Positions 7,940 through 48,676 of a DNA stretch of 49,136 bases are shown one piece after another. The DNA comes from Jimgerdemannia flammicorona (lineage: Eukaryota), in assembly GCA_003990765.1 (NCBI GenBank), contig RBNJ01000032.1, forward strand, positions 1 through 49,136. The letters run 5' to 3'. The translations under genes and the position numbers were made by a program. The notes under the pieces are model-generated. The model saw nothing but the letters and a program-made list of their open reading frames with translations, made no database searches and was not told where the DNA came from. Every line of letters begins with the position of its first letter. Position 1 is the stretch's first letter.

Positions 7940-8106
7940 TTTGTTTGTAGTAAGTCTTTGAGCTATTTTTGGGATTGGTGGGTCTTGTTGGTTGCTGCTA
8001 CTACAGTTTCTTGATCCTTCTTTTATATTCCTCAAGATACTCATACTGTGGTCACAGTGACTCATAGTTGGTCATCATTGCTCATCTTATAATGTCACTC
8101 TCCCCT

Positions 8107-11100
8107 TCAACCAATGCCCCGTGGGCCCAGGCCTCCCTCTTCGATCTCCCCCTGCCTGAGCACTACCCAACCACCCACAACCTGAATTCTTCCACCACTC
8201 TTCTGAGAGATGCACCTCATCAGCCCCCTGTGGCACCCTCCATCCAGCCCCCAACCCTGCCACCATCCATTCAAAATGTCCAAAAGCAACTATTCCCAAC
8301 ATGCCAACTTGTCCCCAATCCCAACCTGATGCCCCTCCTCAAAGACATGAACCCAATGTCCAGCCAACCCAACTCATATAGCCAAGGCCCACCCAAGGGT
8401 CAGCCACTCGTCTCCAACTCCCCCCACCAGCCGCCGGCAGAGCTCTCCCCATCTCCCCCCTCCCTCTCCCTCCAGAGCACTCTGCCCCACCCGGCTCATA
8501 ATACCTCTCCAATAATCTTCCAAAACCTCACACTCACCAAGCCAATGTTCAGGCATTTGCAACATGCCTCCCTCCTGGCCAACATTGAAACACTCCTCAC
8601 ACTCAAATTCTCCACCATCCACCAAATGCCCAGACCTATAGTTCAACATCACATTCCTCCACAGGACACGCCACCATACCACCCAGAACTTGGGGGGCAG
8701 CCACTGCCTCACCCTTTTGCTCCAGAGCCAGAGTCCATTCCAGTCCCACTCCTCACCAATTCTGACTCTCTGCCAGGCTTCAGGCCACAGGTCTCCACCT
8801 AGGCCTCGCAGACACTCCAGACCCTCGCCAAGCTTAAAGTCCTCCACCAGGACACCACCCAGTAACAACCTGTCCCACCGCCACATCTGTGGTCCCCAAT
8901 CCTCCTCGGCTTCATCACCTCGCCACCGAAGTCCAATCTTCTTCGCACTATTTACCACCCCCCACCAAAAGCCTGTAAACCGCATTCTCCCGCTCCCCTC
9001 CATGGCCACCATCACGAGCAGATCACCTGAGTCACCATGTGGGGAGTACCGAACCTCCCATAATCGCTGCATGAGTGGCACCCACTCCCGACCACGAAGC
9101 TCGCTTGCTCTTCTCAACCACTAAGCTCTAAGGCATAGGAGCCGCTTAGGGAAGTCTACTAAGCCTAGCCCACCTCTTTCCAAGGGTAGTGTGAGCACCT
9201 CCCAACCAACCTGGCTCCACCTCCCTCCCCAGATCCATGACCTCGCCATCTTCAACAGCCCCTTGACCACCCAGGTTGGGAAATCCAAATGATAACCAAC
9301 ATACCACAGCTTGGGCATCCAATACACATTCAGCACCATTACCCTTCCAGCTAGGGACATATGCCGGCCTCCCCAGCACAGCAGAACATTTCCCCACTCT
9401 AACAATTTATGATCCCACCACACCCGGGGAAGAAGAGACCTGAATACCGAGAAATAGATCCCCAAATATCACACTGGTTCTCCAGCTGGTATCACTGTCC
9501 CAATGACCTCACCACCAACAATTCCAGCACCTAGCACTAGAGTCTCACACTTGTGCCAGTTCAGCTTAGCCCCAGAGCCCCTCTCATACCATTCCACAGA
9601 CCTCTGTAACTCCCCCACATCCACCAGGGAGCTCAGTCTAACCACCGTGTCATCAGCAAAGGCCCCCACCTTCCAATTAACCCCTAGAATGTCCAAACCC
9701 CCAATTTGATGCCGAATCTGGTCCAGTAGAGGCTCCAGAGAAAGAGCATACAATATGGGTGACAAGGGATCCCCTTGGGGCACCCCTCGTCCCAGGGGAA
9801 AGGTCACCCCCCTGTGGCCATTAACAACCAGCACCACCTGACTATCCTCCAAGAGGCTGATCAGTGATCCTCGGAACCCTGGGGGGATACCAATCCATTT
9901 CAGCACCCCCTCCAGCCATATCCTCTGCACTCTGTCATAAGCCTTCTTCTGGTCTAGAAATACCAACCTGCTGTCAACTCCTGCTGCCTGGGCACCTTCA
10001 ATCACTCCATGAACCCAAGCTATCCTATCTTGAATCAACTGACCACCAACAAACCCACGCTGCTCCACCCCAAGCACCTGCTGAGCAATTCCTTGCAGCC
10101 TCATCACCAAGATCTTGGTCACCAGTTTGCGGTCCATGTTGAGAAGTATAATAGGCCGCCAGTTCCTCCAGTCCTCATGCCTCTCCTTATCCTTATAGAG
10201 CAAGGAGACTAGCCCTAAGCACTGTCCCCCAATCCAGGCACCAGACCAAAGAACTTCACCACACAAAGCAGTCATCTCCTCTAGCACCTCACCGACTCCA
10301 GCCATTTTCTGCCAAAAATCCCAGGGAAGCCCATCCTCTCCTGGGGCAGTCCCTTTACTCATTGAGGCCATAACTCTGCAAATTTCCTCACCACACACTG
10401 GGTCCCCTAATGCCCCAAGTCCCATCGCAGGGTTTGGGTGCCAATTCCCCAGCTGCCTCTCAATGTCCAGAGCATCCATCCCTCCTTCTTCCTCACTCCA
10501 CAAATTCTCCCACCGGTTCCGCAATAGGCCCAGAATCGCCGGAGACCCCACCACCAGCTCGCTGTTCGTGTCCAGAACCCCCTCCCACTGCTGCCTCGTT
10601 CGTCGTGCTTGTAACAACCTCGATAAAAACCTAGTAGGTCTCTCCCCTTCCTCCAGCCCCTGCCACCGCAAGCGGGCCACCATTCCCTGCAGCTTCACCT
10701 CCTCCTCCTTTCGTAACACTCCTTTAAGCTCTTCGACCTCCTGTCGGATTTATACAATATGCCAATCAGTCACCTCTCCATCCTCCAGCACACCTGCCCA
10801 TCTCTCCATAAGTGCTGCCAGATGCCAGGAGGCCCACAGCACCCTCCGCCTTCGCTGAGTACACTTCCCTTTCCCTGCCTCCCTCTAATACCTCTGGGCA
10901 GTTGCCTTCAGTCTTCTCCAACAGTCTCCAATTCCCAAGCCCTGTTCCCTCCACCGACTAATATTCCCAACCACCTCTGTCTCCCAACCCTCTCACAACA
11001 CCCTATCTTCCAACAAAGAGGAATTTAGCTGCCAATGTCCAGGCCCATCCTCATTTCCCCCAAACCTCCCCCCTCCAAGCAGCCCCCAGTGATCAGACCA

Positions 11101-11769
11101 CAGACACCATACCACTTCCAGTACCAACTAGACATCTGCTCCCCAACACTCCACCATCAGAACCCAGTCAATCCTGGAGCCCAGCCCTGCTGCCCAGTGG
11201 GTGTACATCTGCTGATTGGCCCAAAGGTGTCTTTCTGAGTCCACTTAAGAACACAATCTCTCTATTTCCAGCCAATCCCCCAGCCCACCACTTTCGCCCC
11301 ACACACCTCTCCCACCATCAGTTCTATCCATCTCCTTATCCCATACCATGTTGAAGTCACCCCCCATACAATCCAGGCCAACTTCTCCCAATACACCAGC
11401 CTCTTTCAATTGGCGAATCCAATCCACCCTCTCCCCTCTTTCAGCTGGGCAATAACAAGACCCAACTGTCAACGAGCCCCATCCAGGCCTCTTCTACAAA
11501 TCCCACACCACCCAAGACCCCCAATGTCCAATGTCTACAATGTCCCCCATCCCTTTCCGAATGAGAATACACACTTTCCCCCTCCATACTGCCATGCCCC
11601 CCCATTCCTTAGTCCAATCCTGTAAGTCCACATCTTCTTCATATCGAACATCCTGTAGTAAGAAGAGGTCTACGTCCAGTCTCTTAAGCCAACCAAATAT
11701 GTACTTCCTCTTAGCTGCCCCCCATAACCCATTAACATTCAATGAAAATATCCTAGTTGTACTGTTCAT
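8107..11769 (-). pseudogene. LINE ORF2: AP endonuclease, reverse transcriptase, zinc knuckle
   Basis: SLNVNGL, GGDFN, SRIDW, SDH; APGEDG, GVPQGDPLSP, FADD; CEEC...EHWLGEC; one frame with 10 internal stops. Confidence 0.95.
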
Positions 11770-11800
11770 ATTGAAGGAATGTTGAATTGACTACCCCAAC

Positions 11801-13723
11801 CTAGTATTCCATGCTCATCTCATCTCCAGCCAGATCCAAGTGCCATTCCGCCTCCAAGTCACCCTCCACATTAGCCTGAGCATCCAGTGCCTCCAAGATT
11901 TCCTGGCATTCCACCCCATCCATGACCTCCATATCTGACCGGTAGTCTAGGCAGACTGCGTGCCACTTCTCCAGTCCCTTCATCGAATTCTACAAGAAAA
12001 GTGCCCTGTTGCTTGCAATCTTCCGAAGCTCCTCCTCCCGCTGATCATCCACTTAATATTCAACAGATTCCAAGAGAACAGCCAGGATCTCATTCCTCAT
12101 CTTCCTCGGCACCTTCTCCTCTCGTAGAATCTCCTCCCAATGCCTCTCCTCCATCACCCGGAAGTCCTCACCCCCCAGCTCTTCTGCTGCCACCCCTTCT
12201 AGGGTCTTCTATATCCACTTTTCCTCATCCACTGCCTCTGCCGCACCCTGAGCGATACATCCCCCATCCACCTCTGGGTCCATCAGCATGCTCCTCCTCA
12301 CTGACTCATCCCACTCCTCATCTGGCACATCCATCAGCTCCTCCTCCCCCTCAGCCCCACCTGGGACACTATACTGAGGGTGCACACCCTCACCCATTTC
12401 GGCATCTACTGCCAACACACCTTCCTCCTCTACCCTCCCTCCAATCTGAGCCCCACCCTGGGCCATTTCCCCCCCCTCAGCCCAAGCGCTCTCCTGCAAC
12501 CCTGCAACTCCTTTCTCTGAGCTTTCACCAGCCCTACCCCCACCCAGCCTCACCAGCAGCTCCTTCTGTATTTTCCTCCCCTGCATCTTCTCCCAAACCC
12601 CTTTCTCCATCCGGACCTTCTTCCCATCCACCTCCCCTACCACCATCCTGGCCTCAAACTCCTTCCAGGCCAATCTCCTCCTTGCAACTGCCCCTTCCAG
12701 ATCCTCCAGCACCTCCAACAGGTCCTCCTCCTCCTCCTGGGTCCCCTTCACCCTCGCGACCTTACACTCCACTGGTCCCCACCTCAGCATCACCGGCCAG
12801 TCCCTCGACCTTCCTGTATTCTCCTTCCCAAACAGCCTCACCCTGACATCGATGTCACCAGTCCTAAGTGTGGTGCCCTCCCAGACCTTGAACCCAACAT
12901 CTACAATCTTGCCATACTCCTTGATTGCCTCTACAACCATCTCTCTGGTCCTCTCCTTCGACACAGTCGGGAGATCCAACACCGTCAACTGCACCACCCG
13001 GGGATCCCAGCACATACACTGGGCCATAGGAACCACAACCCCACCAACCATCACCCCCTTCTCCATGGCTGCCATCAAGGCATCTTCCTCCTCAAACCCC
13101 ACCTCAACCCCCTCCTTTCCCCTCAAAAACTTCACTGAGGCCGCTCCCTTAGCCTCTTGTGCCACCAACCCCAAAATCATCCTCACCGTCACCGCCAAGC
13201 CCCGGAAGCACATAGTGACTGTGAATTCTGACCTCGACTTCTTGAGTAACGGGGCCAACACCATGCCCGTCACACCATCTGCCAGGTCCCTGGGCCTCAT
13301 GCCCCCTCCCAGTCCCAAATCGCCAACTGCTGTCACATCTGGATTTTTTGCCAGATCCCCAGTCACAGCCCCATCAGCAGTCACAGCCCCATCTCCAGCC
13401 CCTACTCTGGCTCCTACCCTACCACCAGAGGCTCCCCTGGGCACCCCTCCCTATCCTCTAGCAGCAGCCATCGAAGCCTTCCCCAGGCCCAGCCAACCAT
13501 CCAGCCCAGAAGCCATCTTTCCCATTCTGACTGTGTCAGCAAAGGTCGACCTCTCCCCTCCTCTCTGCCTCAGACCACCCCTCCCTTCACCGCCAGTGCC
13601 TCTGCTCACCCTCGAGGCCTCTGGCATCTCCAAACCATCACCCCTCCTCCCCACCTGCTGCCAGCCAAAGGCACTGTCACCCCCCTGGCCAGTATGCTCA
13701 CCAGTTCAATCAGTGCTATCCAT
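11801..13723 (-). pseudogene. LINE ORF1 (RRM-like core, acidic tail)
   Basis: ATG at 13723 in frame with fragments 13654, 13444 and 11983; core VEVGFEEE...YGKIVDV is shared with copies 2 and 3. Confidence 0.85.
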
Positions 13724-13908
13724 GTTGCTAGTCATCTGACACCAAAAATGTTGTAAAAAGTGTTGTCTGAGTCTTGTGTCACCCGAATGGTACTGGTGAA
13801 AGATGTGCTTATCTTATATGCCATATGATCTTCTTGTGCTCTGATCTGGTGGCTTGCAAGGAAAGGCTGTCTCTTGTGCTGATGTCATCATTCTGGGGTC
13901 ACCATTAT

Positions 13909-15030: not shown

Positions 15031-16601
15031 TATAATATGCTGGCTCAATAGAGGCAAATTACAAGGTTGGAGATTGATGTAGTTTGGCTTGAGCCCCCAG
15101 TTACTTTGTCAAAAAGCAACAAAATGTTCTTGGTGTTTAGCAGTATAATAGTCAAAGCTGGATATCTGTGAGTGATTTGTATGTCGATTTCCTAATTGGG
15201 ACAGTTCTCTGGGTGTAGCAGCGATTTGTGTATGTGAACAGATTTCCTTCTTGGGTCAACTAGGAATGGCAGAATTTTGTATATAGCATGAGCAGTTTCC
15301 TTCTTGAGTAGCAGGTGATTTCTGTGTAGCATGATGATCTCTGTGTATGATGGTCTGGCAATTTAGCAGTTCTCCTTATGTGATTTCTGTATAATGGTCT
15401 TGTGTAGCGCAAGGAGATTCCTTATACCGGATGATCTTAGCAATATTCCTTATACAGATTTGGTGGATAACTCAATTTAGCTCACTGGGAATTATACTGG
15501 TGCAGTTTCTTCTATACTGGGCTCACTGGGAATAATGGATAACTTAGATGGTATGAATCGGGCTCTTCTGGGAATAATGACTCAGGTGACATGAGTCAGG
15601 TCCTTCTGGGAATGCAGATAACTTAGAAATGACAGATGACACAGATTCTTCCTGAATCAGCAGACTTCTTGAGAATAACAGCTTAACTGAGAATTAACTC
15701 AGATGATATGGGTTCTTTCGAATCAGGTTCTTCTGGAAATATGTTGGCACAGATTCTTCCTGAATTGGTGGCTTCAACTGGGAATATGGCAGATAACTCA
15801 AAAGGCAGTGGATAACTCGGATGGTATGGATTCTTCCTAAATCAGTGGCTTCAACTGGGAATTAACTAGGATTCTTAGCAAGTTACATCAAAGACTGACT
15901 TCATTTGCATGGGGTTATATCATAGACTGGCTCCACTGCAAAGTTGCATCAGAAAGACTGGCTTGTGGCAAGAATGGCGGTGAAAACTTGGGTTCTTCAG
16001 GCTTATCTGGCAAGTGTGCCAATAGCACAGCTTATTCCTTAAGCAGTGGGTTCTTCAAAAGGTGGCAAAGTTCTTCACTTAAACTTGGTGGCAAAATCAG
16101 CTTTGTATTGAAAAGTGGACTAGAGTGGAAAGGGGACCAATACTCACAATCTCCTAACAGTGGCTGTAGAGTTCCTCTTAAAGTGTGGTAGGCAGACTTG
16201 ACTTTTGCTTTTTGGATTCAATTTTGGACTGAGGTTTATTCACTCTTGTCTCTGGGGTAATTTATATAAGTTGGTTGCTATCTGGTTGCTATGTGGCTAA
16301 CTATAGATTTACTACTTCTGATAATACTTTGGTGTGTCCTCTGGGTACAGGTGTGTCCACAGGACATGAGTGTGTCTGCAGGACATGAGTGTGTCCGCAG
16401 GACATGAGTATGTCTGCAGGATATGAGTGTGTCCTCAGGACACAGGTAAACAATCCTGTTCTGGTGTCTTGGCTAATTATAAGTGTGGCAGGCATGGGTA
16501 ACTATGATACACTGGAAGTCACATCATGCTGAGTAAGTATGCTAATTGTTTGCATCATCTGGCTAAGTTATAATTCAGGTGGTACATTTTGGTCTGTTAC
16601 A
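15031..16601 (-). repeat. 3' LTR of element B
   Basis: Colinear with 24168-25746; preceded on the - strand by a weak PPT-like AGTGGGGGCTGA (16602-16613). Confidence 0.95.
16360..16446. repeat. 19-bp tandem repeat, 4 full units (3' LTR U3)
   Basis: CAGGACATGAGTGTGTCTG at 16360, 16379, 16398, 16417. Confidence 0.92.
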
Positions 16602-16640
16602 TCAGCCCCCACTGAAGGGTAGTCTGTCCCAGACTATTCT

Positions 16641-17165
16641 TCAGTCATCATCCCAATAGGCATAAGCAGCTTCTGCATCTATATCTGTTCTATCATCATC
16701 ATCTGAGCTATGGTCACTCTATTCCAGGGGCTCTTCTTCTTTCTTAGGAAATAGGATCTCCACTTGATGAATGATGCTGAGATAGGTGGGCAGTGTCATC
16801 CTTTGGAGGTCATTCAGGGAGAACTGGGCCTATATTAAGGCAAAAGGATTTCATTTGTATATTGTGTAGAGTCTGTCTGCAGCAGTAGTATTCCTTCTGT
16901 TCAGGCCAGTAGTGTTATGGACATAGGCTAGATCTGGGAGAGGAAGATTCTGCAATTGTTCTCCAATTGCATAGTATGTCTGCAGCTGGTGGACTTGGAG
17001 TAGCCTCTCAGCCAGAGTGAGGTTCTCTTGATGAACTTGGATTTTCTGAAGATATGTTCCATTGAGTTCCTGGAACTGAGGCAGGGGAACTGGTAGGGCT
17101 TGGAGGGAACTGAGGACAAGGGTTTGGAGGTGGTTGTCAATTTTCTGGTTTATGGTGTGAGAAGA
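16641..17165 (-). pseudogene. Accessory 3' ORF of element B (not in the ORF track)
   Basis: Manual translation TINQKIDNHLQ...QTYYAIGEQL...TAADRLYTIYK*NPFALI*...DAEAAYAYWDDD*; three internal stops; start codon not identifiable. Confidence 0.72.
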
Positions 17166-18215
17166 GATATATCTTGAGGCAATTGATGTGTACTGGTGTT
17201 CTCAGGGTTCGTCCATCCATGCTTCTTAAATAGATGCTGGTTCCTCTGATGTTGTGTACAAGATAAGGTCCTTTCCATTTGGGCTCCAGTTTGGTGGCAA
17301 AGTTTGTTTCAATTATGCTTCTCCAAACTAGTACTTGATCTCCAATCTTGATCTCCTGATCCTTCTGTCTTTGGTCATAGTGCTTCTTTTGTCTTTCTTG
17401 GGCTTTGATAATCTGACCTCGGGCCTGATTATATAACTGTTCTGCCTTCTTGAGAAGATCTCCAAGGTTCTTATGGTCAGCAGTTCTCATTTTCTTGGCA
17501 AACATCATTTCAAATGGCTTTTGTTTGGTTGAGGTGGCAGGGGTGTTCTGAATTTCCCATAGGATCTCAGGTAAGCAGAGGTCCCAATTAGTAGCATTGA
17601 CTTAGGTAAGTCCTTTCTTGATAGTCTGGTTTATCCTTTCTGTCATGCCATTGGTCTGAGGGTAGTATGATGTAGTTCATTTGAGATGTATCTTGTGAAT
17701 TTGAGCATAACTTGTAATTATGTTGTTGATGAATTCTGTGCCTCGATCAGAGATGAGTTCTTCTGGGGGTCCATATCTGAGTGTGAGTCCATGGAGAAGG
17801 CCTACAATGGTTAGGGCATCTGCAATTTCCATTGGGAAAGCCTCAGGCCACTTGGTCAGGTGTTCTACAAATACAAGGATATATTTGTTTCTTCTTGGTG
17901 TAACTGGTAGAGGTCCAATTACATCTACTCCCCATCTTTGAAAGATGTGAGTGGGTGGGGGAATCAGTTGCAGAGGGACTTGATAGTTCTTCCTCCTTGG
18001 TACTTCTGGCAGATGTTACATTTCTGAATGATGTCTCAGACTTATGCTCTGAGGTGGGGCCAATGTTGATATTATTCTCGAATCTTGTCTTCTGTACTTG
18101 TCTGTCCTTGGTGGGCTTTCTGATGTTCTTTTCAGATGAGATCTTCTTGTGCCTTAATGGTCTGAGGAGCTTCCTTTAGAGTGTAGTTTCTCAGGACACC
18201 CTTCTTCTGGTTCAT
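17137..18215 (-). pseudogene. Integrase ORF of element B, own ATG
   Basis: ATG at 18215 (MNQKKG...HQKAHQG...CNIC), WGVDVIGPLP, SDRGTEF, KLEPKWKGPY; one frameshift near 17990. Confidence 0.87.
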
Positions 18216-21200
18216 TGGGGCTGATGGGAAAGTACATTAATATTGTTGTGAGCTTTCTCTGCTTTGTGCATGATGGTGATTTTGTAATCCTGAAGGATAA
18301 GGATCCAGCAGGCTAGGATTCCAGTAGGTTCCTTACAGTTGAATAACTATTTGAGAGCTACATAGTCTGTGATCAGGGTGAACCTTTTTCTGATGAGGTA
18401 ATGCTTGAACAGGGTGACTGCCCATATGACTGCAAGACATTCCAGTTTGGTGCTACCATAGTTCATCTGCTGCTGATTGGTGGCTCTGCTTGCATAAGCT
18501 ATCACATGGTACTGTTGATTGGGTCCTTCTTGGACTAGAACTGCTCTGAGGCCATCTTTAGAAGCATCTGTATACAGGATGAATGGCTTCTGTAGATTGG
18601 GGCGCACAAGGATTAGTGCTATAGTCATATAGTTCTTGAGTTCTTTGAAAGCTTTTTCTTGTGATGCTGTCCATTTGAATGGTACTCCTTTCTTGAGAAG
18701 GATTCAAATTGGGGTGGCAATTTGGGCAAAGTTCTTGATAAACCTTCTATAGTAGGATACTAGTATCAGAAATGATAGTGTTTCCTTTGGGGTCTTGGAT
18801 ACTGGCCAATCATTGATATTTTCAGTTTTCTTTGGGTCTGCATGGGTTCTTTCTTTTGAAACTATGAATCTAAGGAATTCAAGTTTCTGTTTTCCAAAGT
18901 AGTATTTCTTTGCATTCAGTCTCAAGTGGTTTTTGTAGGTGAGCTTGAAGAATTCCTCTAGGTGGTGCAGGTGTTCTTCAAAATTTGCTGAATAGATGTT
19001 GGAATCATCCATGTATACAATCAGACAGTGGTGGATCAGGGGGGCATAGACTGAATTCATCATCCTGGTACATTGCAAAGTCCAAAGGGCATTCATAGGT
19101 ATTTAAACAGTTTTCCTAGAGCAAGGAAGGCTGTCTTTTGAATGTCTTTGGGGTCCATGGGGATCTCATGGAATCCTGTGAAGAGGTCCATACTGCTGAA
19201 ATATCTGGCATCTTATAACTGGTCCAAAAGGTCATTGATTCTGGGCAAAGGATAGGTATCCTTTTCGGTAACTGAATTGAGTTTCCTGTAATCTACACAA
19301 AGTCTCCATCCTCCTTTCTTTGGTACAATAAGTATAGGGCTAGCCCAGGGGCTAGTAGAGGGTTAGATGACTCCATTGTCTAAGAGTTCTTAAATGTGCT
19401 CCTTTTTAAATATTTTCAAGTGATGGGATATTCTATAGAGTTTCTGCCAGATGGGTGTTGCATTTCCTGTATTTATACTGTAGTGGTATGATGGATTGTA
19501 TGGTAAGTTGCCATAATCAGTGGTGAAGATATCTTGTTATTTGTTGAGAAGTTCTGCTAGTTGTTGTTGTTGTTGAGGTGTTAATTCTTCTCCAATATTG
19601 GTAGAAGGCTTCACTGTCTCCTGGGTTGCAGAGGGGCCTTTCTTTCTTCTGAGATCTTTTGCTATTTCCCAATAGGTTTAGTTCATAAACTTCCCTATGA
19701 GTTTGGTTGAGAAAGGGCACCAGATGTCCTATGATGGTTCCTTTTGGTAAGATGATGGTCTCCCAACTTTGGTTGGTTGCTCAGGAGTGTACTGGGTTCA
19801 TCTTGTCAGGAAATGTGTACCCCTCTATGTCCAGGTGTGGGATATCTTCCTTGGGTTCAAAGAAAAGATTTCTGGGGTCAGGTGGTGCAAAGATTTCGAA
19901 GGTAGTTTGTTCTCTGGACTCCAGGATGAGATTCTTATACAGTCTGACTGGTTGCCAGTACACTTGCTGGAGAACATTCCTTTTGAGGTAGTTGACTTGA
20001 AGGAGATATACCTCCTTCCTATCTGAACTTCCAAATCTCTTGGCTTGTCTTGTTCCTTCAGTTAGTTCAGAGACTTCCTATAACTGTGGGGTCTTGACCT
20101 TCATGAAGACTGCTTGGGCAATCTTCTATCCTCTAATGATTCAGTGCTATTCTGCACTGCTGTTATGTAGGATGACCTTGATTTCGCCTATATATCCAGA
20201 GTCAATGATTCCTCCTTCTACAGTTATCCCTTGTCTGGCAAGTCCAGATCTTGAGATCAGTTGAATATAAGCTCCTTGGGGTGGCTGCATGGCTAATCCA
20301 GTTCTGATTATGAAGTTTTTTCCAGGCTTGATAGATTCATCCTCCAGGCTGTGAAGATCATATCCTATATCCTCTGAGTGGGCTTTGGTCAGGGGTTTGG
20401 CCTTGGGGTGCAACAGGGCATACTGGGCAATATCCTTGCTGAGTTCGGGCTTTCCTAAGGCTGAAGCTCCACTAGTGGAAAGTCTCCAAGCTCTAAGGTT
20501 GAGGTGTGGCCATCTGGCTCCACTAGAGGGGTCTTGGAGGTAGTTGATTCCCCTCCTTCCTGTAGGGTCAAGGGCTTCCATGAAGTTGGTGGTATCTTCT
20601 GCCCATTCTTGGCAGGTTACTTGTCTAATGAGAGCTAGGATGTCTTCTCCCAAATCATAGATCTTGAAAATTCTTTTTCCGGGCTTCTTGGTTTGGCTTT
20701 TTTGAATCTGGCCTTTTCAAATCTGGCTTCAGTTATCTCCTTTCTTCAAAGTGTGCACTGCAACATCATGACTGAGGTGAATCTTCTGATGTCTGCAGTC
20801 TTGGCAATCAGAGTGTCTCCTATGGTTGCAATATCCCATTGCCTGAAAATGATGTTCCCAGCTATTTATCTCTTGTTGTCTTGGGAATTGGTACCCATCT
20901 TGATCATAGGTTGGGGGAAGGGTAGACAAGGGGTATATTTCTGTTTGGGTGAAGAAGTCTTGTCCTCTAAATCGACTTTGTAACCTTGTGGTGACTTCTT
21001 GAAAGGTGGTGGACTGTGTAAGAGTAGTTGGGGGTTCTGGTCTCTGAGGTCTCTGTCTTTCTTGTTGGTCCAATAGATGACACTGATAGCAGTAGTCTTG
21101 GGGAGAGTGGAAGACCATTTGGTGTAGACATCTTCCTAGCCAAAAAGCTTCCTCTTGGTGGGTTTCTTTCTTGGGGATAATGGTGATTGTACTGGGTCCT

Positions 21201-24110
21201 TCTTCTGTATTCCAAGAGTCATTGTCTTTAGGTGGTGTCCAGTGGGGGTCATCCCAGGGAATGAGTTCATGGACTTCTTCTTCATCAGGTACTTCTTGTT
21301 CAGGAACTTCTTGGTCAGAAGTTTCTTCTTCCTCAGATGATTCTTGACCCCAAATTGCTTGTACTTCTGCAGCTTCAGTTGCAGGTGTTTCTGGAACATG
21401 TCTGCATTTCTTCTTCTTCCTTCTGCACTCTGGGCAGGCTGTGCCAGGCAATTTTCTTGTTCCCATGATCTTGGAGGAGTGCTCGGGACACTTGTATCTC
21501 TTAAGGCATGTAGGGCATCCTTTGGCTTCTCCTGCAATAGCTCTAATGGTAATAGAGATAGTGTTCATGGCCCACACATTATCTTCTGGTCAGTCATCTA
21601 CCAGATTTATTCAGGGATTGAGTCTGGGATCATTTCCATCTTCAGATTCTTTCTCTTCTTCTGTGGTGGATTCTTCACTGCTGGCATACTCTTCCTGAAT
21701 AGTAATCTTCTTCTTCTTCTTTGATTGCTCATAGCTGGTCACCTTAACCCTATACTTTTTGCCTCAGTAATCAAACTTGAGTACTTGTTGGCCAATATCA
21801 ACAACTGCATTCATTTCCTTCATCTAGTTGGTGCTAAGAATCATGTCATAGGTGACAGCTTTAATGACAACAGCTTTGGGGATGGAGAACTGAATGTGTC
21901 CAAGAGAGATAGTGATATTTCATACTTCTCCAAGGGGTTGAGTTCAGGCTCCATCTGCTACTATGATGCTGAGGTTAGATAGTCCATCAATGAGCCATTG
22001 GAGGGTGTCCAAGAATTATTTGGCAATGACATAGATAGCTGCTCCTGTGTCTATGAGGATTTTCGCTTTTTGTCCTCCAATATCTCTATGTAAGTAGGTG
22101 CTGACATGTCTTTCAGCTGCTTGGACAGGGATGGAAGCTAGTTCTTGCTGTGGGATTAGAACTCGGCCAGTGCTAGACCTGATGGTTCTCAGCAATTTGT
22201 TTTGGACTCCAGCTGGTGTCAGTTGCAAGAACTGCAGGAGAGGACTTCCATCTTGGCTTCTTGAATCTTCTGCCAGGCTTTATTGTAAATGTCTCTAGGC
22301 ATGGTCTTCAGAGTGTACTTCTTCTTAGGCTTTGGAGCAGCAGGTTCCTGTTCTTCTTGTTCCATTTCTTCATCTTCTGATAGTAACTCATTTGTCTCGG
22401 GGGCAGAAGGTGAGGGGGTTCAGGGAGGTGTTTCTACTTGTTCCTCCTCATGTTCTTCATCCTCTTCTTGGATAATTCTTCTGCTGATATTTCTGGATGG
22501 TCTTCCTACAGGTCTCTTCTTTTTCTCTGCTGGATAGATGGTTTTCTGGGTTGTAACCTTAGTGGGGTACAAGTCTAGATTACTGTAGTCTTCACTGTTG
22601 CTTGCTTCTTCGAAATCTTCAACAGGATGGGCTTCAGTTTTCTTGTACTGAGTGTCATTCCTTCGATTTAGTGGTTCTGAGTCCCTTCGGTCACTTCTTT
22701 TATTATCACATTCAGTGGCATAGTGTCCAAATTGTCCACAGTGGAAGCATTGGACTTGGGCTCTATCTTGGACAGGATATCTTCTTTCTTCTTGCTGATA
22801 ACTCTTGTTATCTCTTGGTGGATAACCTTGGCTTCTCTGTGGTGGGTACCCTCTGTTGTTTTGGTAGTCCTGATTTTCGTATATAGTGAGTTTTTTGATC
22901 TGTCCAACCAATCGGTCCAGCTTGGAGCTGAGGTCTTGGATTTCACTTCTGTCCTTCTTCCCTTCCTTGGCTGGTCTTCTTTCTTCAGATCTTTCTTGTC
23001 CTTGAAGGAGTCCTTGTAGGGCTTTGACCAGGATGTCTTTTTTCTCTTCTTTTCTATTATGATCACTCCAAGTAGTTTCTTGTCTGATATCAAAGAATCC
23101 TTGGGCTACATCTACTTACTCTTCAGACCTTCTGATGCCTAGGGTGTGGACATGCTGGGCAATGTTTGGGGGAATTCCATTCATAAAGGTCATTGGACCG
23201 ATGATGTTCTGGTTGGTGGCATTGAACCCAGCAGCATGCATTCTCTTCTGGATTCTTGTGAAGAAGGCTCTGGGCAATTCTCCAAGATTCATCTTCATCT
23301 CCATGATGGATTCCTGAGCCTTGTAGTGAGTTTCATTTCCTGCATACTTTTCAATGAGCCAGTGGACCATGGCCTCATATTCTAGCTCATCAGATATTAC
23401 TGCTTATATCTGTCTTACTAGTTCTGAATCTCAGTTGTTTGCTGTTCAATGGAAAATTCCTTTGGCTGGTTCTCTGAGCTGAGCTTTGTAGATGGTGATT
23501 TTTCTTTCATCTGAGAGATTTCTCAAGGCTGCAATTCCTTCAATTCCATCAAGGAATTCTCTGGGGTCTTCCTCTGGGTATCCTGCAAAGGTTGGCAATG
23601 AGGTGGCCATTTCATTGTCACTTTCTTCTGATTCTAGTTCAAGTTCAGATTCTGATTCTGATTCACTTTCTGAACTGTCACTAGAGATGGGGGTGCTTGG
23701 GTATCCTGAGAATGGTGTTCTGGATCTTGGATAAAGTGGAATAGGCCTAGGTATTCTTGTAGGAGCTATTTCCGATTCTGTAAGGGGTTGTGGTAAAGGT
23801 TCTATTGGTGAGATTGGTGGGATTAGTGTGGGGTGTCTGGCTGTAAGGTCTCGGGTTCATGTGATAAGATCTTCTAGTTCTTGTGCAAGTTCTCCAAAAT
23901 CTCTAGCAGGGCTGCCTGTATTGTCTGGTTGATCTGGTTGGGGATTTCAGGCTGTACTGCCTCCTGCTTCTGGTTGGGATCCTTCTGATGCTGGGTAGTT
24001 AGCAAGTTTTGATGTGATTACTTCTCTTCCTGTCCAAATGCTAGTGATGACTGGTTCTCCTGTAGTGGCAGAGGTTGGTGTTGTGTCAAATGTATCCAGT
24101 TTGACTGTGG
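18212..24110 (-). pseudogene. Gag-protease-Cys-rich insert-dUTPase-RT-RNaseH polyprotein of element B
   Basis: LPTFAGYPEEDPREFL Gag motif, CCHC knuckle, LIDTGA, RT and RNase H motifs; many stops and a frameshift near 22240; 5' boundary approximate. Confidence 0.9.
20021..20425 (-). other. dUTPase domain between protease and RT (element B)
   Basis: DIGYDL, SRSGLA, GIIDSGYIGEI, KIAQ and degenerate motif V RQAKRFGSSD. Confidence 0.92.
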
Positions 24111-24147
24111 GTTCTTGTGAGCTGAAAAGTCATATCAATTTGAAATC

Positions 24148-24165
24148 TTCTCAGTTGAGCCCCCA
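24148..24165 (-). promoter_or_regulatory. Primer binding site of element B, tRNA-Pro-like
   Basis: TGGGGGCTCAACTGAGAA, 2 nt after the LTR; first 9 nt match the tRNA-Pro PBS TGGGGGCTCGTCCGGGAT and two of the later mismatches fit CpG decay. Confidence 0.7.
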
Positions 24166-24167
24166 AA

Positions 24168-25746
24168 TGTAACATGCTGGCTCAATGGAGGCAAATTACA
24201 AGATTGGGGATTGATGTAGTTTGGCTTGAGCCCCCAGTTACTTTGTCAAAAAGCAACAAAATGTTCTTGGTGTTTAGCGGTATAATAGTCAAAGCTGGAT
24301 ATCTGCAAGTGATTTGTATGTCGATTTCAGTTCTCTGGGTATAGCAGTGATTTGTGTGTATGAATGGGTTTCCTTCTTGGGTCAACTGGGAATGGCAGAA
24401 TTTCATGTGTAGTGTGAGCAGTTTCCTTCTTGAGTAGCAGGTGATTTCTGTATAGTGTGATGATCTCTGTGCGTGATGGTCTGGCAATTTAGTGGTTCTC
24501 CTTATGTGATTTCTGCATGACAGTCTTGTATAGTGTAAGGGGATTCCTTATGCAGGATGATCTTGGTGATATTCCTTATATGGATTTGGCAGATAACTTG
24601 ATTTGGCTCACTGGGAATTATTCTGGCATGGTTTCTTCTGTACCAGGCTCACTGGGAACAATAGATAACTCAGATGACATGAATCGGGCTCTTCTGGGAA
24701 TAATGACTTAGGTGGTATGAGTTGGGTCCTTCTGGGAATGCAGATAACTTGGAAATGGTGGATGATGCAGATTCTTCCTGAATTGGTGGACTTCTTGAGA
24801 ATGATGGCTTAAATGGGAATTAACTTGGATGGTATGGGTTCTTTCGAATCAGGTTCTTCTGGGAATATGTTGGTATGGATTCTTCCTGAATTGGCAGCTT
24901 CAACTGGGAATATGGCAGATAACTCAAAAGGTGGTAGATAACTCGGATGGTATAGATTCTTCCTGAATCAGTGGCTTTGACTAGGAATTAACTAGGATTC
25001 TTGGCAAGTTACATCAAAGACTGGCTTCATTTGCATGAGATTATGTCATAGACTGGCTCCACTGCAAAGTTGCATCAGAAAGACTGACTTGTGGCAAGAA
25101 TGGCAGTGAAAACTTGAGTTCTTCAGGCTTATCTGGCAAGCATACCAATAGTGCAGCTTATTTCTTAAGTAGTGGGTTCTTCAAAAGGCAGTGAAGTTCT
25201 TCACTCAAACTTGGCAGCAAAATCAGCTTTGTATTGGAAAGTGGACCAGAGTGGAAAGGGGACCAATGCTCACAATCTCCTAATAGTGGCTATAGAGTTC
25301 CTTTCGAAGTATGGTAGGCAGACTTGACTTTTGCTTTTTGGATTCAATTTCAGACTGAGGTTTATTCACTCTTGTCTCTGGGGTAATTTATATAAGTTGG
25401 TTGCTATCTGGTTGCTATGTGGCTAACTATAGATTTACTACTTCTGGTAATACTTGGGTGTGTCCTCTAGGTACAGGTGTGTCCACAGGACATGAGTGTG
25501 TCTGCAGGACATGAGTGTGTCTGCAGGACATGAGTGTGTCTGCAGGACATGAGTGTGTCTGCAGGACATGAGTGTGTTCTCAGGATACAGGTAAACAATT
25601 CTGTTCTGGTGTCTTGGCTAATTATAAGTGTGGCGGGCATAGGTAACTATGATATACTAGAAGTCACATCATGCTGAGTAAGTATGCTAATTGTTCACAT
25701 CATCTGGCTAAGTTATAATTTGGGTGGCATATTTTGGTCTATTGCA
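24168..25746 (-). repeat. 5' LTR of element B
   Basis: TG...CA ends; TATATAAA 25387-25394 and AATAAA 25361-25366 on the - strand; adjacent PBS. Confidence 0.95.
25486..25591. repeat. 19-bp tandem repeat, 5 full units (5' LTR U3)
   Basis: Units at 25486, 25505, 25524, 25543, 25562. Confidence 0.92.
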
Positions 25747-25842: not shown

Positions 25843-28352
25843 CACATCTCTTTCTCCAGTAACATTCAGGTTATACAACCTTTTGGCAATACTTTCAATA
25901 CAGTTTCTGGAGAAAAACTACTAGCATTATGGTAACTGATGAGCATTCTGAGGTGCATACTGGGCAGGGTGATCTGGGTGTATTCAACTGGCAGTATATA
26001 GGGAGGAGTCCTGGTTTGAGAGAAAGCATAAGGGGCCTACTGGTGGGAGGATGTGGTAGGAGAGGGGGCAGTGCTGGAGGTCAGGGAACAGAGAGGGCAA
26101 GCTTTGTAGATAAGGTGAAGGGGGGTCAGCAGAGAGCTGGGCTGGAGGGCTGGCTTAGGAGGAACAAGGAGATGGTGAAGACTATAGAGCAGCAGCCTCA
26201 AGGGAAAGTCTCTCTGGGGGACTGGAGTAGTGGGGCTGGTGGTGTAGGGGCTAAGGGGAGAACTGCTGATAGGAGCATGATGGGCAATCAGGAAAAAAAT
26301 CTAGATGAGACTACCAATGATAGACTGAGTAGTGGGAAAGATATGAGGCCTAGTAATCTGGCAGATAGTGTAATGGGACTAGCAGTGACACCATTACTCA
26401 AGAAGTCAATCTTGGAGTTTGCAGTCACCTTGTGCTTCTGAGGCTTGACAGTGATGGCAAAAATGGTCCTGGGGCTGATTGCTAAGCAGATGGCCAAAAC
26501 AGTGTCCATGAAGTTTCTGAAGAGACTAGAAGGAGTAGAGGTTGGCTTTGAGGAGACTGGACCATTGGAGGAGGCACTGAAGGTAGGATTGACAGTTGGA
26601 GAGATGTGTGTCCCAATGGCATGCTGCTTGAGGTAGGACCCCAGGGTGGTGCAATTGCTGGTAAAGGGGGTACCTATAGTGACTACTGAGGAGACAAGGA
26701 GGAGAGTTATAGAAGTCATGGCTAAGTATGGTGAGGTGGTCGATGTTGGGTTCTGGGTCTGAGAGGGGACCTCATTTAGGACTGGAAATGTTGATATTCA
26801 AATTCAGTTGACAGGAAAGAAAGCTACCAGGAAGGCTAGGGACTGGCCTTCAGTGATGGTCTGAGGGGCTTTCTTGTGCAAGATGATGAGGGTGAAGGGG
26901 AGTAAGGAGGAGAAAGAGGATCTTCTGGAGGCACTGGAAGAGCTGAGCAGTACTATGAAGTAGAGGGCTAAGGCTTGAAAGGTGTATATCAAGTCAATGT
27001 ATTTGGAAGTAGTGGATAGAAAGAGAATTTAGATAAGAGGTGGTGGGAAAGATCCCAAGGATATAAGAGGTAGAGAGAGCTGTTGGCAAAACTGAAAAGC
27101 AGGGCAAAGATAGATACTGGTGGTATTGAAAGTGTGGGGGGAGTCAAGGAGAGCATCTGGGCCAGCAAGGATAGAGAGAATACAGGGAAGGGGCCAGGAG
27201 AGAGAGAGAAGGTAAAGAGAAATAACCTTATGTGGATGGTACCTTTGAGGTCTGGAAGCTATCTCTGATCCCTATGCCACTTATTAGATGAGGTCCAGCT
27301 TTAAGGAGCAGAGTGGCAGAGGATGTGCCCATGTAGGGAGCCTAGAGAGTACACTTTGGAATTCCTGAGGTAGTGAATGGGGGGCAAGTAGTGGTGGTGG
27401 GCAAGGATGAACTGGTGGATATTTAGGAGGAGGAGTGGGATGAGGCTACAAGTGCAGGAGCTAATATCTTGATACTGGATGGAGGGTGGCCAGCAACTCC
27501 TGGGGGGAAGGAGGTGGGAAATCTGCTATAGATGTGCAAGATGATGAACAACTTTATAGTGGAGGAGTTGGGGGAGGTAGACCTGCAAGTAATGAGTGAT
27601 GAGCATTGAGCATATATCCTATATGGCAAGGGAGTGGTGGAGGCACTGAAGGTGGAGATTCTTGCAGTTTTCCTGGAGAAGGAAGAATATGAGGTTGATA
27701 AGAAGAGAGAGGCTGGGCTGGTGGTTGCTGCTGATGAGAGGGCTGCTTTCTGTTAGGCAGAGTAGCATGGGTTGAAGCTCTGGCAGAAGGCCTGCCTGGA
27801 ATATCATGAAGAATTCAAGGAGAGAGAGGATGGGGAGATTATAGAACTTCTGGCTAGATTGGAGGCTAAGAGGACTGAAGAGGAGGAGGAAGCTATGGAA
27901 CATAATCTAGACCTGGCTCAGAATGAGATAAATATAGAGCAGTAGAGGATATGCTTACTATTATATATTATTCCTTATGAATAGTACAACTAAAATTTTC
28001 TCTTTAAATGTAAATGGACTCTAGGGTTCATTTCATCAATGGAATATTTTTGCTTGGCTGAGGGGATTGGAGACCAATCTCTTTCTTTTGCAGGATATCA
28101 GGTATGAGGATGATTTGAATAAACTAGAATGGACAAAGAAATGGAGAGAGGAGGCAGTTTGGAAGGGCAAGATACTGGATATACAGAACTAGGGAGACAG
28201 GCTGGTCTAGGGTGAGTGGATTCATACTGGTTGGGAACCAGTTATAATTGAATTCTGCTACTGTCCTGTGGTGAGGAGTGAGTGGATAGAGTGGGTGAAG
28301 GGTCTCTGGGAGGAAGGAACTCTGGTAGAGACTAGAGTAGACATGCTTGGCA
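25843..28352 (+). mobile_element. L1/Tx1-like LINE copy 2 (5' end, ORF1, start of ORF2)
   Basis: 5' end CACATCT...CCAGTAACATTCAGG matches copy 1; ORF1 homology (PLLKKS); ORF2 MNSTTKIFSLNVNG at 27977; breaks just before GDFN. Confidence 0.88.
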
Positions 28353-31300
28353 GAACTTCTTTTGCTCAAACCACTCAGAGTGAGCTAAGCCACACAGATA
28401 TCTTTCAGTGAAAGACAACATGTTTTCAAGTTTTTATTTCAATCAAATGGGTGTACATTGTGCAGTGGAAGTCTATCTATAAGACACAATAAGTTTCAGT
28501 ATAAATTATCAAGTTTTGGTGACATGGCTAGTCAAGGTTCCTCTGGCTCAAAGCATCTGGAGAGGAGGAGGCCTGGTCTGGGCCTTCCTAAGAGCTTTGC
28601 AGCTGCTGTAGGGGCTGGTGGGGCTGCTGGAGGGACTGGTGGTCAGGGGAGATCTGGAGGAATTGAGGCCTGGCACACTGTGGTGGGGAGCAAGAGGGCT
28701 GCAGCCAGGCTCTTGAGAGTAGGGCAGGGGGGACATAGTGTTGACAGGGGGAGGGATCAGGTGATGGATCAGGTGACTGATCAGGTGTCTGACAGGGGGC
28801 AGGGATCTGGTGGTATGACATCAGAGACTGGTTCTCCTAGGGCTGGACCAGTGGCTGGAGAGAGGACAACTGGTAGTACAGTTGTGGCTGGTGAGGTGAC
28901 TGCTGGTATTTCTGGAAATAAAGAGAAGGTGACTCTGGTGGCTGGGATAGGCAAGCTGGTAATGAGGCCCTTCTTTCACAAGTTGATATCTATATGGGCA
29001 GTTTCAGTGAACTTCCTGGAATTAGTAATGTCAGCTAGAGAGGTTCTGAGGCTAGTGGGGGATGAAGTGGCTGGAGCAGAGTCCTTGAAGTTCATCCCTT
29101 TGGTAGAGGCAGTGGAGATTGGATTTGTGGAGGAGGATGCAATGACGAAGGCACTGGAGAAGGGGCTGATTGTTAAGGGTGTCTGAATTGGGATAGCAAG
29201 ATATTTGAGGTGAGACCCACATACTGTTTGGTTGGTGGTAGAAGGCCTACCAACACTGGGCAGACAGAAGACCAAAGAGATAGTAGTGGAGGCTTTGGGT
29301 AGCTATAGTGAGATGGTGGATTTTGGATTCATGTTTTAGGAGAATACTAAATTGAGGAATGGTAACTGTGAGGTGATGCTGCAATTGGAAGGCAAGGAGA
29401 TGACAGGGCTAGAGCAAGACTGGCCTGAGGGGATTTGAATTAGAGAGCAAAAGTGCAAGGTGTGGAGGAGGAAAGGGGCCAAACAGGAGGAAGAAGAGCT
29501 GGTGATTGCTCTGGAGGAGAGGGAGACTGCCAAGGAGCTGCAAAAGAGGAAGTGGGAAGAGTTTGCCAAGGATTGGGTTTGGATTCAAGCAGATGGCAAG
29601 CAGAAGAGATGGAGGAAAGGGAACTGGGAGCATTTGCAGACAGCTCTTCAGGGAGTGGCAGTGGAAGAGGAGGTATGAGTAGAGGTAGCTAGGAATCAGA
29701 TGGAAGGAGTAGAGGCAGTGGAGGTGTCCTTCTCCCAGCTAGGTGGTGTGGAGAACTCAGCATATGCACCAGTGAGAGGAAAGTGGGCAGATAAGGAGGA
29801 GGTGGGAGAAGGAGGTTTTGAGGATAATGCTGAAGTGGTGCCAGAGACTTAGATGGAGGATACCCATATGGCAGGAGTGGTGAATATTCATTGGAAGTGT
29901 CCTGAGGCTGGTGAGGTAGTGTATTTGGAGAAGACTGCAGAGGAGGATGAACTGGTGGATATGGTCTCAGATGTGTCAGCAGATAGGAAACAGTTGTAAG
30001 AGTTGAGTAGGACCCCTAGGCTACCAACTCCAGGGCCCCTGGTGATGACAGCAGAAAACTGATATCAGGTGGTACTTGAGGAACTTGTGGAGGAGGATAT
30101 CAAGGAAGTGGATGTATTCCATAGATCTCAGGAGGTATGGGAAGGATTTCTTAATGTTGTGATGCAGGGACCTAAGCTGGTAATGGCAATAGTAGCAGCT
30201 CTCCTGAATGATGAAGGATATGATATTGATGAAAGCAGGATGGTAGACATCAGGAAGGTGGTAGTGGAGAGAGTGGACCTTTTCTGCAGCAGTGCAAATA
30301 GTGATTGTATCTAGAGAGCAATTTGTGAGAAATAGCAAGAGATCATTAAAGGAAGGGCAGAGAAGGTGGTGGCAGTCTCAGCTGAGCTTTAAACAATATC
30401 TTTGATGATGATGAACAGTTTACACATCTTATCAATCAATGTTAATAGATTGCATGATAGTGTTAAAAGAAGGTGGCTATTTCAATAGCTTAAGGTCAGA
30501 AGATATAATATTGTTTTTCTTCAGGATATTCAGACTTATGGGAAGCAAGACTATGAGATGTAGAGTAAAGAATGATATGGTGGAGCAGGTTGGAACAAGC
30601 AGGTGGGCATCTTGGTTGGTGTCGGTAAAGGCAAGCTGGTGGAGGTAGAGGCCTATGGTGACAGATTGGTGTGGGGAAGACTGAAAGGAGGAGCAGCCAA
30701 TAGCTTGGTGGTGGGCTCAGTTTATCTTCCTGCAGTTGGCAGAGAGCAAAACCAATGGATGAGGGATGGCAGGCTTGGGAGAGTCAGGGGGCAGTTGTCC
30801 TGGACATTCTGAGGGGGGACTTCAATATAGTGTATGATAGAATACTGGATAGATCTGATGGTGGAGCTGGAGTAGTGGCATCCTCTGGACTGTCTTGGTG
30901 GTTTCAGGTGGAGTGTGACATGGGACTGGTGAATAGAGTCCATCTATATCAGGGGGATAGATTAGGACCTTTTACCCAATGGCACCCAGTCAATGGAGAA
31001 TTGATCAGAACACAAATTGATTGGGTGCTAGTAGCTGAGTATTGAGGTAATGTATTGGATACTGCAGAGGTGTGTTGGTGCCCTTGATCAGATCATTGGG
31101 GAGTAGAGGTGTGTGGGAGATTCTAAGCAGCAGGCAGTGGTGGAGGGTACTGGCACCTTAATGTGGCTTTGCTTAGGAGGAAGAAGGAGAGAGAATAGTT
31201 TGTAGACATTATGAGACAGGAGATAGAATGATGGCAGAATGATGGACAGTTAATAGTAGAATAGTGAAGTAGATTCAAACATCTGGCTGGTGCCTACTGG

Positions 31301-31955
31301 TATAATGTTGGAGAAGTGGTGGAGAAAGAGCAGAAGGATAAGGAGAGAAGGATAGAAAAAGGGCTGCAATGGCAATTGAGGCTAATGGAAGAGGAGAACT
31401 TATCTGGAGAAATGTGCCACCAGTTAGCAGTAGAGGTAGCTGAGTTGCAGGCAGACTTGAAGGCAGCTGAGGATAGGGCAGTAGATGGCCTGTTGGCTAG
31501 ACTGAGGGCTAGGCAGTTGAAGGAGAGAGTGAGGCTGACCAAATATCTGTCTGGCATTTTGAAGATTAGAAGGGTCCAATACAGCTGAGTCTTGGTATTG
31601 CATGAAGATGGCATAGAGGTCTCTGAGATTGCTGACATGTTGGAAGAGGTCTCAGAAAAATGGCAGGCTCTTTGGCAGGATAGTGGGGAGCTTGCTGAGA
31701 AGGTAGAGCTTTGGGAGGATAATGACAATATGGTGAACAATTAACCAGTGACAGCATTACCTGAGATAGGAGAGGTGGTAATGAGTGAGGTATCTTTGGA
31801 TGAGGTTTTGGAGATATTGAGGAAGATGCAGACTAGTTCATCACCTGGGGAGGATGGGTTGCCCTGGGAATTCTGGAAGGAGTTTCAGGTAGAGTTTGGC
31901 AGCTAGTTGGTAGAGATGGCCAACTTTGTACTGAAGGAGGGTAGCTGAATTGGTA
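28353..31955 (+). mobile_element. L1/Tx1-like LINE copy 3 (divergent subfamily, 3'-truncated)
   Basis: ORF1 AVEIGFVEEDAM; ORF2 from ~30405 (SINVN, GDFN, TQIDW, SDH, SPGEDGLPWEFW); ends early in RT. Confidence 0.86.

Positions 31956-41444: not shown

Positions 41445-41508
<64 letters not shown>

Positions 41509-48629: not shown

Positions 48630-48676
<47 letters not shown>

Follow-up and report, generated by a model that had tools for sequence, protein, structure and literature searches.

The window analysed here, the whole 49,136-nt stretch of contig RBNJ01000032.1 of Jimgerdemannia flammicorona (GenBank assembly GCA_003990765.1), contains on its minus strand, at 15033-25746, a copy of a Ty3/gypsy long terminal repeat (LTR) retrotransposon, here called element B. 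Its reverse transcriptase (RT) and RNase H region is closed by a stop codon that overlaps the ATG of a separate integrase open reading frame (ORF), and this junction is the subject of the present analysis. The 5' LTR (24170-25746) and the 3' LTR (15033-16601), paired by self-BLAST, measure about 1.58 kb and are 88.6% identical over 1588 columns; a 112-nt fragment at 34202-34313 has 81-82% identity to them. Between the LTRs, all on the minus strand, the domains follow in the order gag, protease, dUTPase, RT, RNase H and integrase (HHCC and rve). The gag (22420-23115) carries a CCHC zinc knuckle (Pfam zf-CCHC, E 3e-05), read in the ORF as CFHCGQFGHYATEC. The protease region (22016-22279), to which the related proteins P0052 and P0058 align by tblastn, had no Pfam match, and its ILIDTGAA motif was read directly from the ORF. 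A dUTPase domain (20147-20716; Pfam dUTPase, E 1e-17) separates protease and RT. The N-terminal part of the RT (19063-19620), supported by tblastn with six relatives, lies in another frame than the C-terminal part with its YMDD motif, which together with RNase H occupies 18215-19102 (Pfam RVT_1, RT_RNaseH and RT_RNaseH_2) and ends in ...NINVLSHQPQ. Downstream of RT_RNaseH and on the same strand, Pfam places the integrase, whose N-terminus with the HHCC zinc-binding domain (17986-18215; Integrase_H2C2, E 6.5e-10, and zf-H2C2) is followed by the catalytic core and C-terminal region (17137-18015; rve, E 2.8e-09; 84% identity to protein P0121). Pfam found no Chromo match in the 293-aa integrase piece, a weak negative given that this piece holds two in-frame stops. 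The closest named relatives of the family are Rhizopus and Rhizophagus elements.

Element B is a dead Ty3/gypsy copy. Eight in-frame stops lie between 19102 and 17137, two in the RT-RNase H piece, four in the integrase N-terminus and two in the core, and the reading frame is broken at two sites. At 19063-19093 the RT passes from frame -3 (19620-19063) to frame -2 (from 19093) in the tblastn alignments; six relatives are unbroken across this site, which is absent from the list of lesions in an earlier note on this DNA. The second site lies inside the integrase at 17937-17994, where residues 1-93 of P0121 align in frame -1 and residues 75-351 in frame -3. As P0121 is continuous there, this frame change is a real lesion, and the 1-nt lesion that the earlier note had placed near ~17990 is thereby borne out. 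All relatives tested by tblastn read through both frame-lesion sites.

The junction between RNase H and integrase is of a different kind. On the minus strand from 18240 to 18200 the sequence reads TTAATGTACTTTCCCATCAGCCCCAATGAACCAGAAGAAGG. The RNase H frame continues through its tail ...NVLSHQPQ as CAT CAG CCC CAA TGA (H Q P Q stop), with the TGA of the gag-pol ORF at 18212-18214, and the integrase frame opens with ATG AAC CAG AAG (M N Q K), with the ATG at 18213-18215. Stop and start therefore have two bases in common (ATGA, 18215-18212), and the integrase is in the -1 frame relative to RNase H. Seven sense codons before this ATG the integrase frame is closed by a TAA at 18239-18237, so any frame change in element B would be confined to about 25 nt. 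The domain borders agree with the two ORFs, as the RT_RNaseH match (E 1.8e-32) ends just upstream of the junction and Integrase_H2C2 starts 22 residues past the Met. The first ORF of the family ends three codons past the RNase H tail motif N-x-D-x-L-S-R.

A second element on the minus strand of the window, element A, has a similar arrangement. Its RNase H ends in ...ADVLSRIPQNTLIKTI-TAA (2467-2465), followed by one base and ATG AAT (2463-2461), so that the junction at 2461-2467, as read from the sequence, is UAA-C-AUG with an offset of +1. The integrase ORF of element A (1216-2463), beginning MNKELYYGLISYL..., is a single frame with in-frame stops; P0121 aligns to 2310-1273, and the start of the element A ORF is aligned with the starts of P0132, P0130, P0125 and P0126. 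Self-BLAST found no DNA similarity between elements A and B inside the LTRs, and the two fall within one branch of the protein tree described below. The sequence thus agrees with the earlier note on the overlap of NVLSHQPQ-TGA with ATG AAC in element B, on the Met-Asn start of both integrases (ATG AAC and ATG AAT) and on the opposite offsets of -1 in B and +1 in A.

Close relatives of element B indicate that its junction is native. Queries with the integrase core recovered P0121 and P0133, and queries with the RNase H piece recovered P0139 and P0141. P0121 is a stop-free protein of 354 aa with 84% identity that begins MSQRKGVPWNCTLKEV... (MSQRKG) where element B has MNQKKGVLRNYTLKEA... (MNQKKG); in tblastn its residue 1 aligns at 18215 and the alignment runs onward into the integrase of element B. 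P0133 (85% identity) reads ...CAFPHGPMNQRKG... (...PMNQRKG) at the MNQKKG of element B, and since its Met is followed by Asn, the bases ATGA are fixed in that copy as well. On the other side of the junction, P0139 (84% identity) and P0141 (71% identity) have the C-termini ...NNVDVLSRQPQ and ...NNVDVLSCMTQ at the stop position of element B, and all 138 aa of P0139 align to 18628-18215, reaching the last sense codon of the RNase H. Because the relatives keep the same stop and the same Met, the junction of element B is not a lesion. The view of the earlier note that the split belongs to the family thus gains support from both sides of the junction, and its counter-case, a family continuous from RNase H to integrase, was looked for and not encountered in the close relatives.

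The stop after RNase H is also widespread beyond this family. The RT-RNase H piece of element B was compared with longer proteins, giving 967 matches at E up to 1e-10, of which the best 120 were examined. The ORF ends no more than 5 residues after the A/V-D-x-L-S-R motif of the RNase H tail in 55 of these 120 homologues, for example ...ADFLSRLGY in Rhizopus and ...VDTLSRIKH in Rhizophagus, and 6-40 residues after it in a further 15, making 70 in all within 40 residues. Continuation into the integrase zinc finger was found in 10 and a continuation of more than 40 residues without that zinc finger in 17; the motif pattern was unmatched in 23. The non-integrase tails of the 17, which include P0070, P0096, P0098 and P0109, extend 60-400 aa past RNase H, and several have an MNPxFLVNxPWW-like motif in common; a tail of this type also stands ahead of the integrase ORF in a DNA copy, locus L001 (2-1146). 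When P0139, P0140, P0142 and P0147 were added to the best 120, 48 of the 124 aligned proteins ended exactly at the stop position of element B.

A FastTree tree of 124 rows placed 122 of these 124 proteins together with elements A and B, leaving out P0115 and one other protein that end before the RNase H end. In this tree a group of 100 rows with local support of 97 contains 60 proteins that stop at the element B site, 14 that stop 6-45 aa later, the 17 with a non-integrase tail, elements A and B, and 7 rows scored as fused to integrase. All seven of the latter (P0063, P0067, P0081, P0089, P0092, P0100 and P0110) are gene models of Rhizophagus clarus, which jump from the middle of the RNase H tail to just inside the integrase, e.g. 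...DIKYR|KEQLYYDLYQYL. The joins remove both the ADxLSR motif and the M-x4-Y integrase start, and the ORF-called sister protein P0101 ends ...LSRMPQQLNQNQQ-stop. Judged from these sequences, the seven fusions are probably artefacts in which an intron was predicted across the stop. The genuinely fused ORFs P0090 and P0112 lie outside the 100-row group, as do 15 of the 22 rows of the other group, largely animal-type gene models; the stop-type rows P0080 and P0113 are also outside it.

These results bear on the alternative that the junction is a random 1-nt lesion in a decayed copy, or that a short intron bridges RNase H and integrase to give a fused protein. Heavy decay of element B (LTRs at 88.6%, eight in-frame stops, two frame lesions) would make a further lesion unsurprising, and the seven R. 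clarus models do join the two domains; yet otherwise intact relatives and dozens of other families carry the same stop and start, and the joined gene models lack conserved residues to either side of the junction, where the ORF-called sister P0101 stops. In element B itself an intron would not fit into the roughly ten codons that separate the conserved end of RNase H from the conserved start of integrase. We therefore consider this alternative extremely improbable.

On the integrase side of the junction, a full scan with P0121 gave 78,459 matches at E up to 0.001, and the best 150 were examined. Identity exceeds 40% in seven of these, all of them short proteins of 254-448 aa that consist of integrase only; five of the seven are full-length ORFs, with 394-448 aa. 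Among the best 150, the long polyproteins have 27-37% identity. We aligned 17 integrase-only ORFs, comprising 13 representatives of 50% clusters plus P0125, P0126, P0130 and P0132. All begin at one aligned Met, e.g. MNPREY, MNSDTY, MDLQQY, MEAEIY and MNRELYYGLISYL, and have the first zinc-finger His at residue 59-72. When the DNA copies of element A and of loci L001, L002, L003 and L027 are included, the start is M-[N/D/E] in 22 of 22 cases, and Tyr stands at position 6 in 20. The element B family uses the same aligned Met with an N-terminal extension about 40 residues shorter, and the second residue of P0121 is Ser. Met-Asn, Met-Asp and Met-Glu N-termini keep their Met and are acetylated by NatB, and M-[N/D/E] would fit a true integrase N-terminus.

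DNA copies of relatives show how the two ORFs are arranged. They came from a scan of bacterial and archaeal genome records, which yielded 77 loci that are evidently eukaryotic contamination; integrase N-terminal queries match 53 of them, from residue 1 in four. In L001 the ORF of the pol tail ends at TAATAA (1147-1152), and the 99 nt from there to the integrase ATG at 1252 (MENQHY) contain five in-frame stops but no ATG. In L002 a TAA (139-141) is followed by 94 nt without ATG, with stops in all frames between the ORFs, and then by ATG 236 (MEEKHY). L027 is a decayed copy with a TGA (4484-4486) inside TTATGAAT, again an ATGA with Met-Asn, which opens an ORF of 20 codons; 117 nt containing another ATG (4561) and five in-frame stops separate the two ORFs before the integrase ATG at 4604 (MERKKY). 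This ATGA at the pol stop of L027 (4483-4546) may be a relic of a junction like that of element B. Only 32 nt upstream of the integrase ATG are present in L003, and L006, L009, L066 and L073 are continuous, fused RNase H-integrase types. The integrase start codon is ATG in all six DNA copies A, B, L001, L002, L003 and L027, and in A, B, L001 and L002 it is the first ATG at or after the stop. Judging by these copies, an ATGA overlap at the integrase start is seen only in element B and implied for P0133, that of L027 lying elsewhere, and it is not a clade-wide trait. L001 also has a 146-aa ORF between integrase and LTR (2613-3050), and an open frame in the same place of element B (16854-17201, minus strand) has marginal similarity to it (25% identity, E 0.039, in a single comparison); the ORF after integrase in both may be an extra downstream gene.

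Spacers of 94-117 nt with stops between the ORFs rule out joining by frameshifting or readthrough in L001, L002 and L027. Programmed ribosomal frameshifting, -1 in B and +1 in A, would give an RT-RNase H-integrase fusion in which the Met at the junction is incidental. It is the standard way of joining gag and pol in retroelements according to passages of PMC5902531, and the overlapping or abutting frames of A and B make a shift geometrically possible, the integrase frame of A being open far upstream. However, the RNase H frame has no in-frame X XXY YYZ heptamer over its final 135 nt in B or its final 294 nt in A, and TTTCCCA, the sole XXXYYYZ string in B, is out of phase. A shift in B would be limited to about 25 nt, and the offsets of A and B are opposite. 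No stimulatory fold was found downstream (z 0.50-0.81; +0.56 for B and +0.50 for A in 120-nt windows), and there was no Rfam match. The in-frame stops of L001 and L027 and the stops in all frames of L002 also speak against it, and a fusion protein would have no need of a Met that is fixed at the same aligned column in all 22 starts. Frameshifting is thus a very unlikely explanation overall and, from the sequences of the spacer-type relatives, would seem close to refuted there. The preference of the earlier note for separate initiation over a conserved frameshift is upheld by the spacers with stops, the fixed Met and the missing in-frame slippery heptamer.

The two-cistron layout, with a conserved stop and a conserved Met start, is a plain feature of these sequences. 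That the AUG is a real initiator, that ribosomes reach it by reinitiation and that integrase is made at a lower dosage are what we infer from this layout. The integrase is very likely a separate cistron with its own AUG. In the B family and the large surrounding clade it would be a second cistron and not the C-terminal part of a Pol polyprotein, synthesised as a polypeptide of its own that begins with Met. A protease cut at the RNase H/integrase border would then be unneeded, and the amount of integrase could be set independently of RT. As an explanation for the data as a whole, a second cistron with termination-reinitiation likeliest where stop and start touch seems probable to us.

Under termination-reinitiation, ribosomes finishing the long upstream ORF would terminate at the stop in B and A, and some of the 40S subunits, remaining bound to the full-length RNA, would start again at the neighbouring AUG, yielding less integrase than RT. 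The position of the stop is retained in many families, and stop and start touch in A (TAA-C-ATG) and B (ATGA), which supports this route; they do not in L001, L002 and L027. For element B, reinitiation on the genomic RNA is, on sequence grounds, a credible though tentative answer to how the integrase AUG is reached.

The rival for this step alone is that the integrase cistron has its own mRNA, either a product of an internal promoter or a spliced subgenomic RNA, translated by cap-dependent scanning. The spliced RNA would have its donor near the 5' end and its acceptor shortly before the integrase AUG, as in the expression of retroviral env. The varying distance between stop and start, from the ATGA overlap in B and +1 nt in A to +94, +99 and +117 nt in L002, L001 and L027, is easier to reconcile with this route, and the integrase AUG has A at -3 and G at +4 in L001, L002, L003 and L027. 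L001 and L002 have in common a block ATTTACA...TATTTTAG that ends 28-29 nt before the ATG in an otherwise diverged non-coding spacer, and TTTTTATAG stands 9 nt before the ATG in L027 and CTTTCCCATCAG 5 nt before it in B; these tracts resemble 3' splice sites. The extra ORF after the integrase of L001 would likewise need an expression route, and no RNA element of the reinitiation type was found. In contrast, the 35-nt leader of L001 contained no match in a strict search for 5' splice sites, whose single match in this locus, GTATGT, is in the LTR ahead of the TATA-like boxes. A pyrimidine tract with AG is common in AT-rich sequence, and in A and B it falls within the codons of the universal L-S-R. 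An own mRNA also leaves unexplained why the stop lies at exactly the same codon in 48 of 124 relatives. We regard this route as possible but somewhat doubtful, and slightly favour termination-reinitiation over a subgenomic mRNA.

Several observations weigh against a reinitiating second cistron. Reinitiation after long ORFs is normally poor, and the upstream ORF has roughly 800-1,300 codons in relatives. In caliciviruses the 18S-complementary motif is UGGGA; a scan of about 120 nt ahead of the stop showed no such calicivirus-type TGGGA in A, B, L001 or L002, although complementarity of another kind may exist in these decayed copies. Nine 120-nt windows upstream of, across or downstream of the junctions of A, B, L001 and L002 were no stabler than shuffled sequences (z -0.86 to +1.70), and no Rfam match was obtained for the whole window at the gathering score or for 17900-18500 at E up to 1. 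Accordingly, neither the TGGGA scan nor folding revealed an 18S-complementary or pseudoknot motif of the kind suggested by the earlier note. The 94-117-nt spacers of relatives are unlike tight stop-start coupling, and in L027 two other ATGs precede that of the integrase. The lack of ATG in the spacers of L001 and L002 is nothing unusual when compared with shuffled sequence (shuffle P 0.64 and 0.12). Element B has a C at -3 of its AUG, a weak context, and elements A and B are both decayed copies. Finally, ORF callers always begin at a start codon, and their 'M' may stand for GTG or TTG, so that the evidential weight of the common start lies in the fixed column and in the ATG of the six DNA copies.

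In canonical Ty3/gypsy elements (Metaviridae; Ty3, Tf1) the protease cuts the integrase from the C-terminus of Pol. Element B has the LTRs, CCHC gag, aspartic protease, YMDD RT, RNase H, and HHCC and DDE integrase of these elements, with RT before integrase, but its ORF stops right after RNase H and the integrase ORF has its own conserved AUG. Fungal gypsy elements with a dUTPase from Postia, Phanerochaete and Tuber include placements of the dUTPase between protease and RT, as in element B, according to parts of PMC2864245. Element A likewise has a dUTPase domain between protease and RT (3707-4402, minus strand), and four of the best 120 relatives contain one (P0012, P0052, P0053 and P0094). 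As far as that source describes them, the elements of PMC2864245 have a single gag-pol ORF or gag plus pol, and chromodomains, unlike element B, in which no chromodomain was detected; neither 'frameshift' nor 'separate ORF' appears in its main text.

Termination-reinitiation at AUGA or UAAUG is described for caliciviruses, influenza B virus and the hypovirus CHV1 in sections of PMC10275272 and PMC5902531. As in B and A, a long upstream ORF is closed by a stop that overlaps or abuts an out-of-frame next start. According to the same sections, these viruses need a termination upstream ribosomal binding site (TURBS), structured and with 18S complementarity, or another defined structure; none was found here in the scans described above, and some of our relatives have spacers of about 100 nt. 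A parallel among retrotransposons is SART1, with UAAUG coupling of ORF1 and ORF2 (PMC5902531 and PMC10275272, in part). There too the downstream cistron of a bicistronic retrotransposon RNA is translated after termination, as proposed here. SART1 differs in being a non-LTR element split between ORF1 and the RT protein, and the relevant passage of PMC5902531 gives a hairpin downstream of the stop-start as required. Unlike in SART1, no stable structure was seen downstream of the stop-start in A and B. The spacers of L001, L002 and L027 have a counterpart in human L1, where ORF2 translation tolerates a spacer; L1 is again a non-LTR element split between ORF1 and the RT protein. The caulimovirus cauliflower mosaic virus (CaMV) translates a polycistronic pregenomic RNA by TAV-driven reinitiation (PMC5902531, in part). 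Like element B, CaMV is a Ty3/gypsy-related reverse-transcribing element with the polyprotein split into consecutive, closely spaced ORFs. It differs in its dedicated transactivator TAV; no TAV-like ORF was seen here, none having been searched for. To our knowledge caulimoviruses lack an integrase.

Other features of the window lie outside element B. Between the LTR of element A and a 102-nt A-like fragment (13806-13907) is a GC-rich block at 8092-13805 (52-55% GC, GC skew -0.43 to -0.47), whose placement suggests a nested insertion; its RT ORF at 9469-10719 is of non-LTR type (Pfam RVT_1, E 6.6e-27). The region 26000-32000 has a positive GC skew of +0.44 to +0.48, and 26262-26945 is 66% identical, inverted, to 12698-13381. 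Two ORFs follow each other on the plus strand, one with a BTB/POZ domain (36246-36887, E 1.1e-14) and one rich in Ser and Pro (37134-40118, 994 aa) without a Pfam match. A pair of repeats of about 60 nt at 41438-41508 and 48614-48676 has 90% identity.

Element B is a Ty3/gypsy member with an unusual gene layout, apparently undescribed. A full-text literature search, with Repbase reports and subscription journals outside its scope, found no description of an RNase H/integrase split in an LTR retrotransposon. In the relevant parts of PMC5902531 and PMC10275272, LTR retrotransposons join gag and pol by frameshifting, and the sole retrotransposon cited for stop-start reinitiation is the non-LTR SART1. 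The layout also creates an annotation hazard, as gene predictors apparently invent introns across the RNase H/integrase junction, and such copies could be taken for broken ones by pipelines built around a fused Pol.

In textbook LTR retroelements and retroviruses the integrase is the tail of Gag-Pol and is packaged through its physical tie to Gag. A free-standing integrase in a clade that is large and seemingly successful raises the questions of how it is recruited to the particle or cDNA, how its dosage is controlled and whether non-autonomous copies can use it in trans. By Pfam, several relatives, e.g. P0035, P0058 and P0084, have a single ORF for gag, protease, RT and RNase H, so that integrase may be the sole dosed component. 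We tentatively propose that a fungal-type Ty3/gypsy clade, including elements of Rhizopus, Rhizophagus, the host of this window and others, may have turned integrase from a domain of the polyprotein into an independent downstream cistron, expressed by termination-reinitiation on the full-length RNA at a conserved AUG, in the form AUGA in the B family. If true, stop-start coupling would be seen here for the first time in an LTR retroelement, with an integrase that joins the particle or cDNA in trans and whose dosage depends on how efficiently ribosomes reinitiate instead of on Gag-Pol stoichiometry. A separate integrase would add an LTR-element case to the few eukaryotic systems of bicistronic translation.

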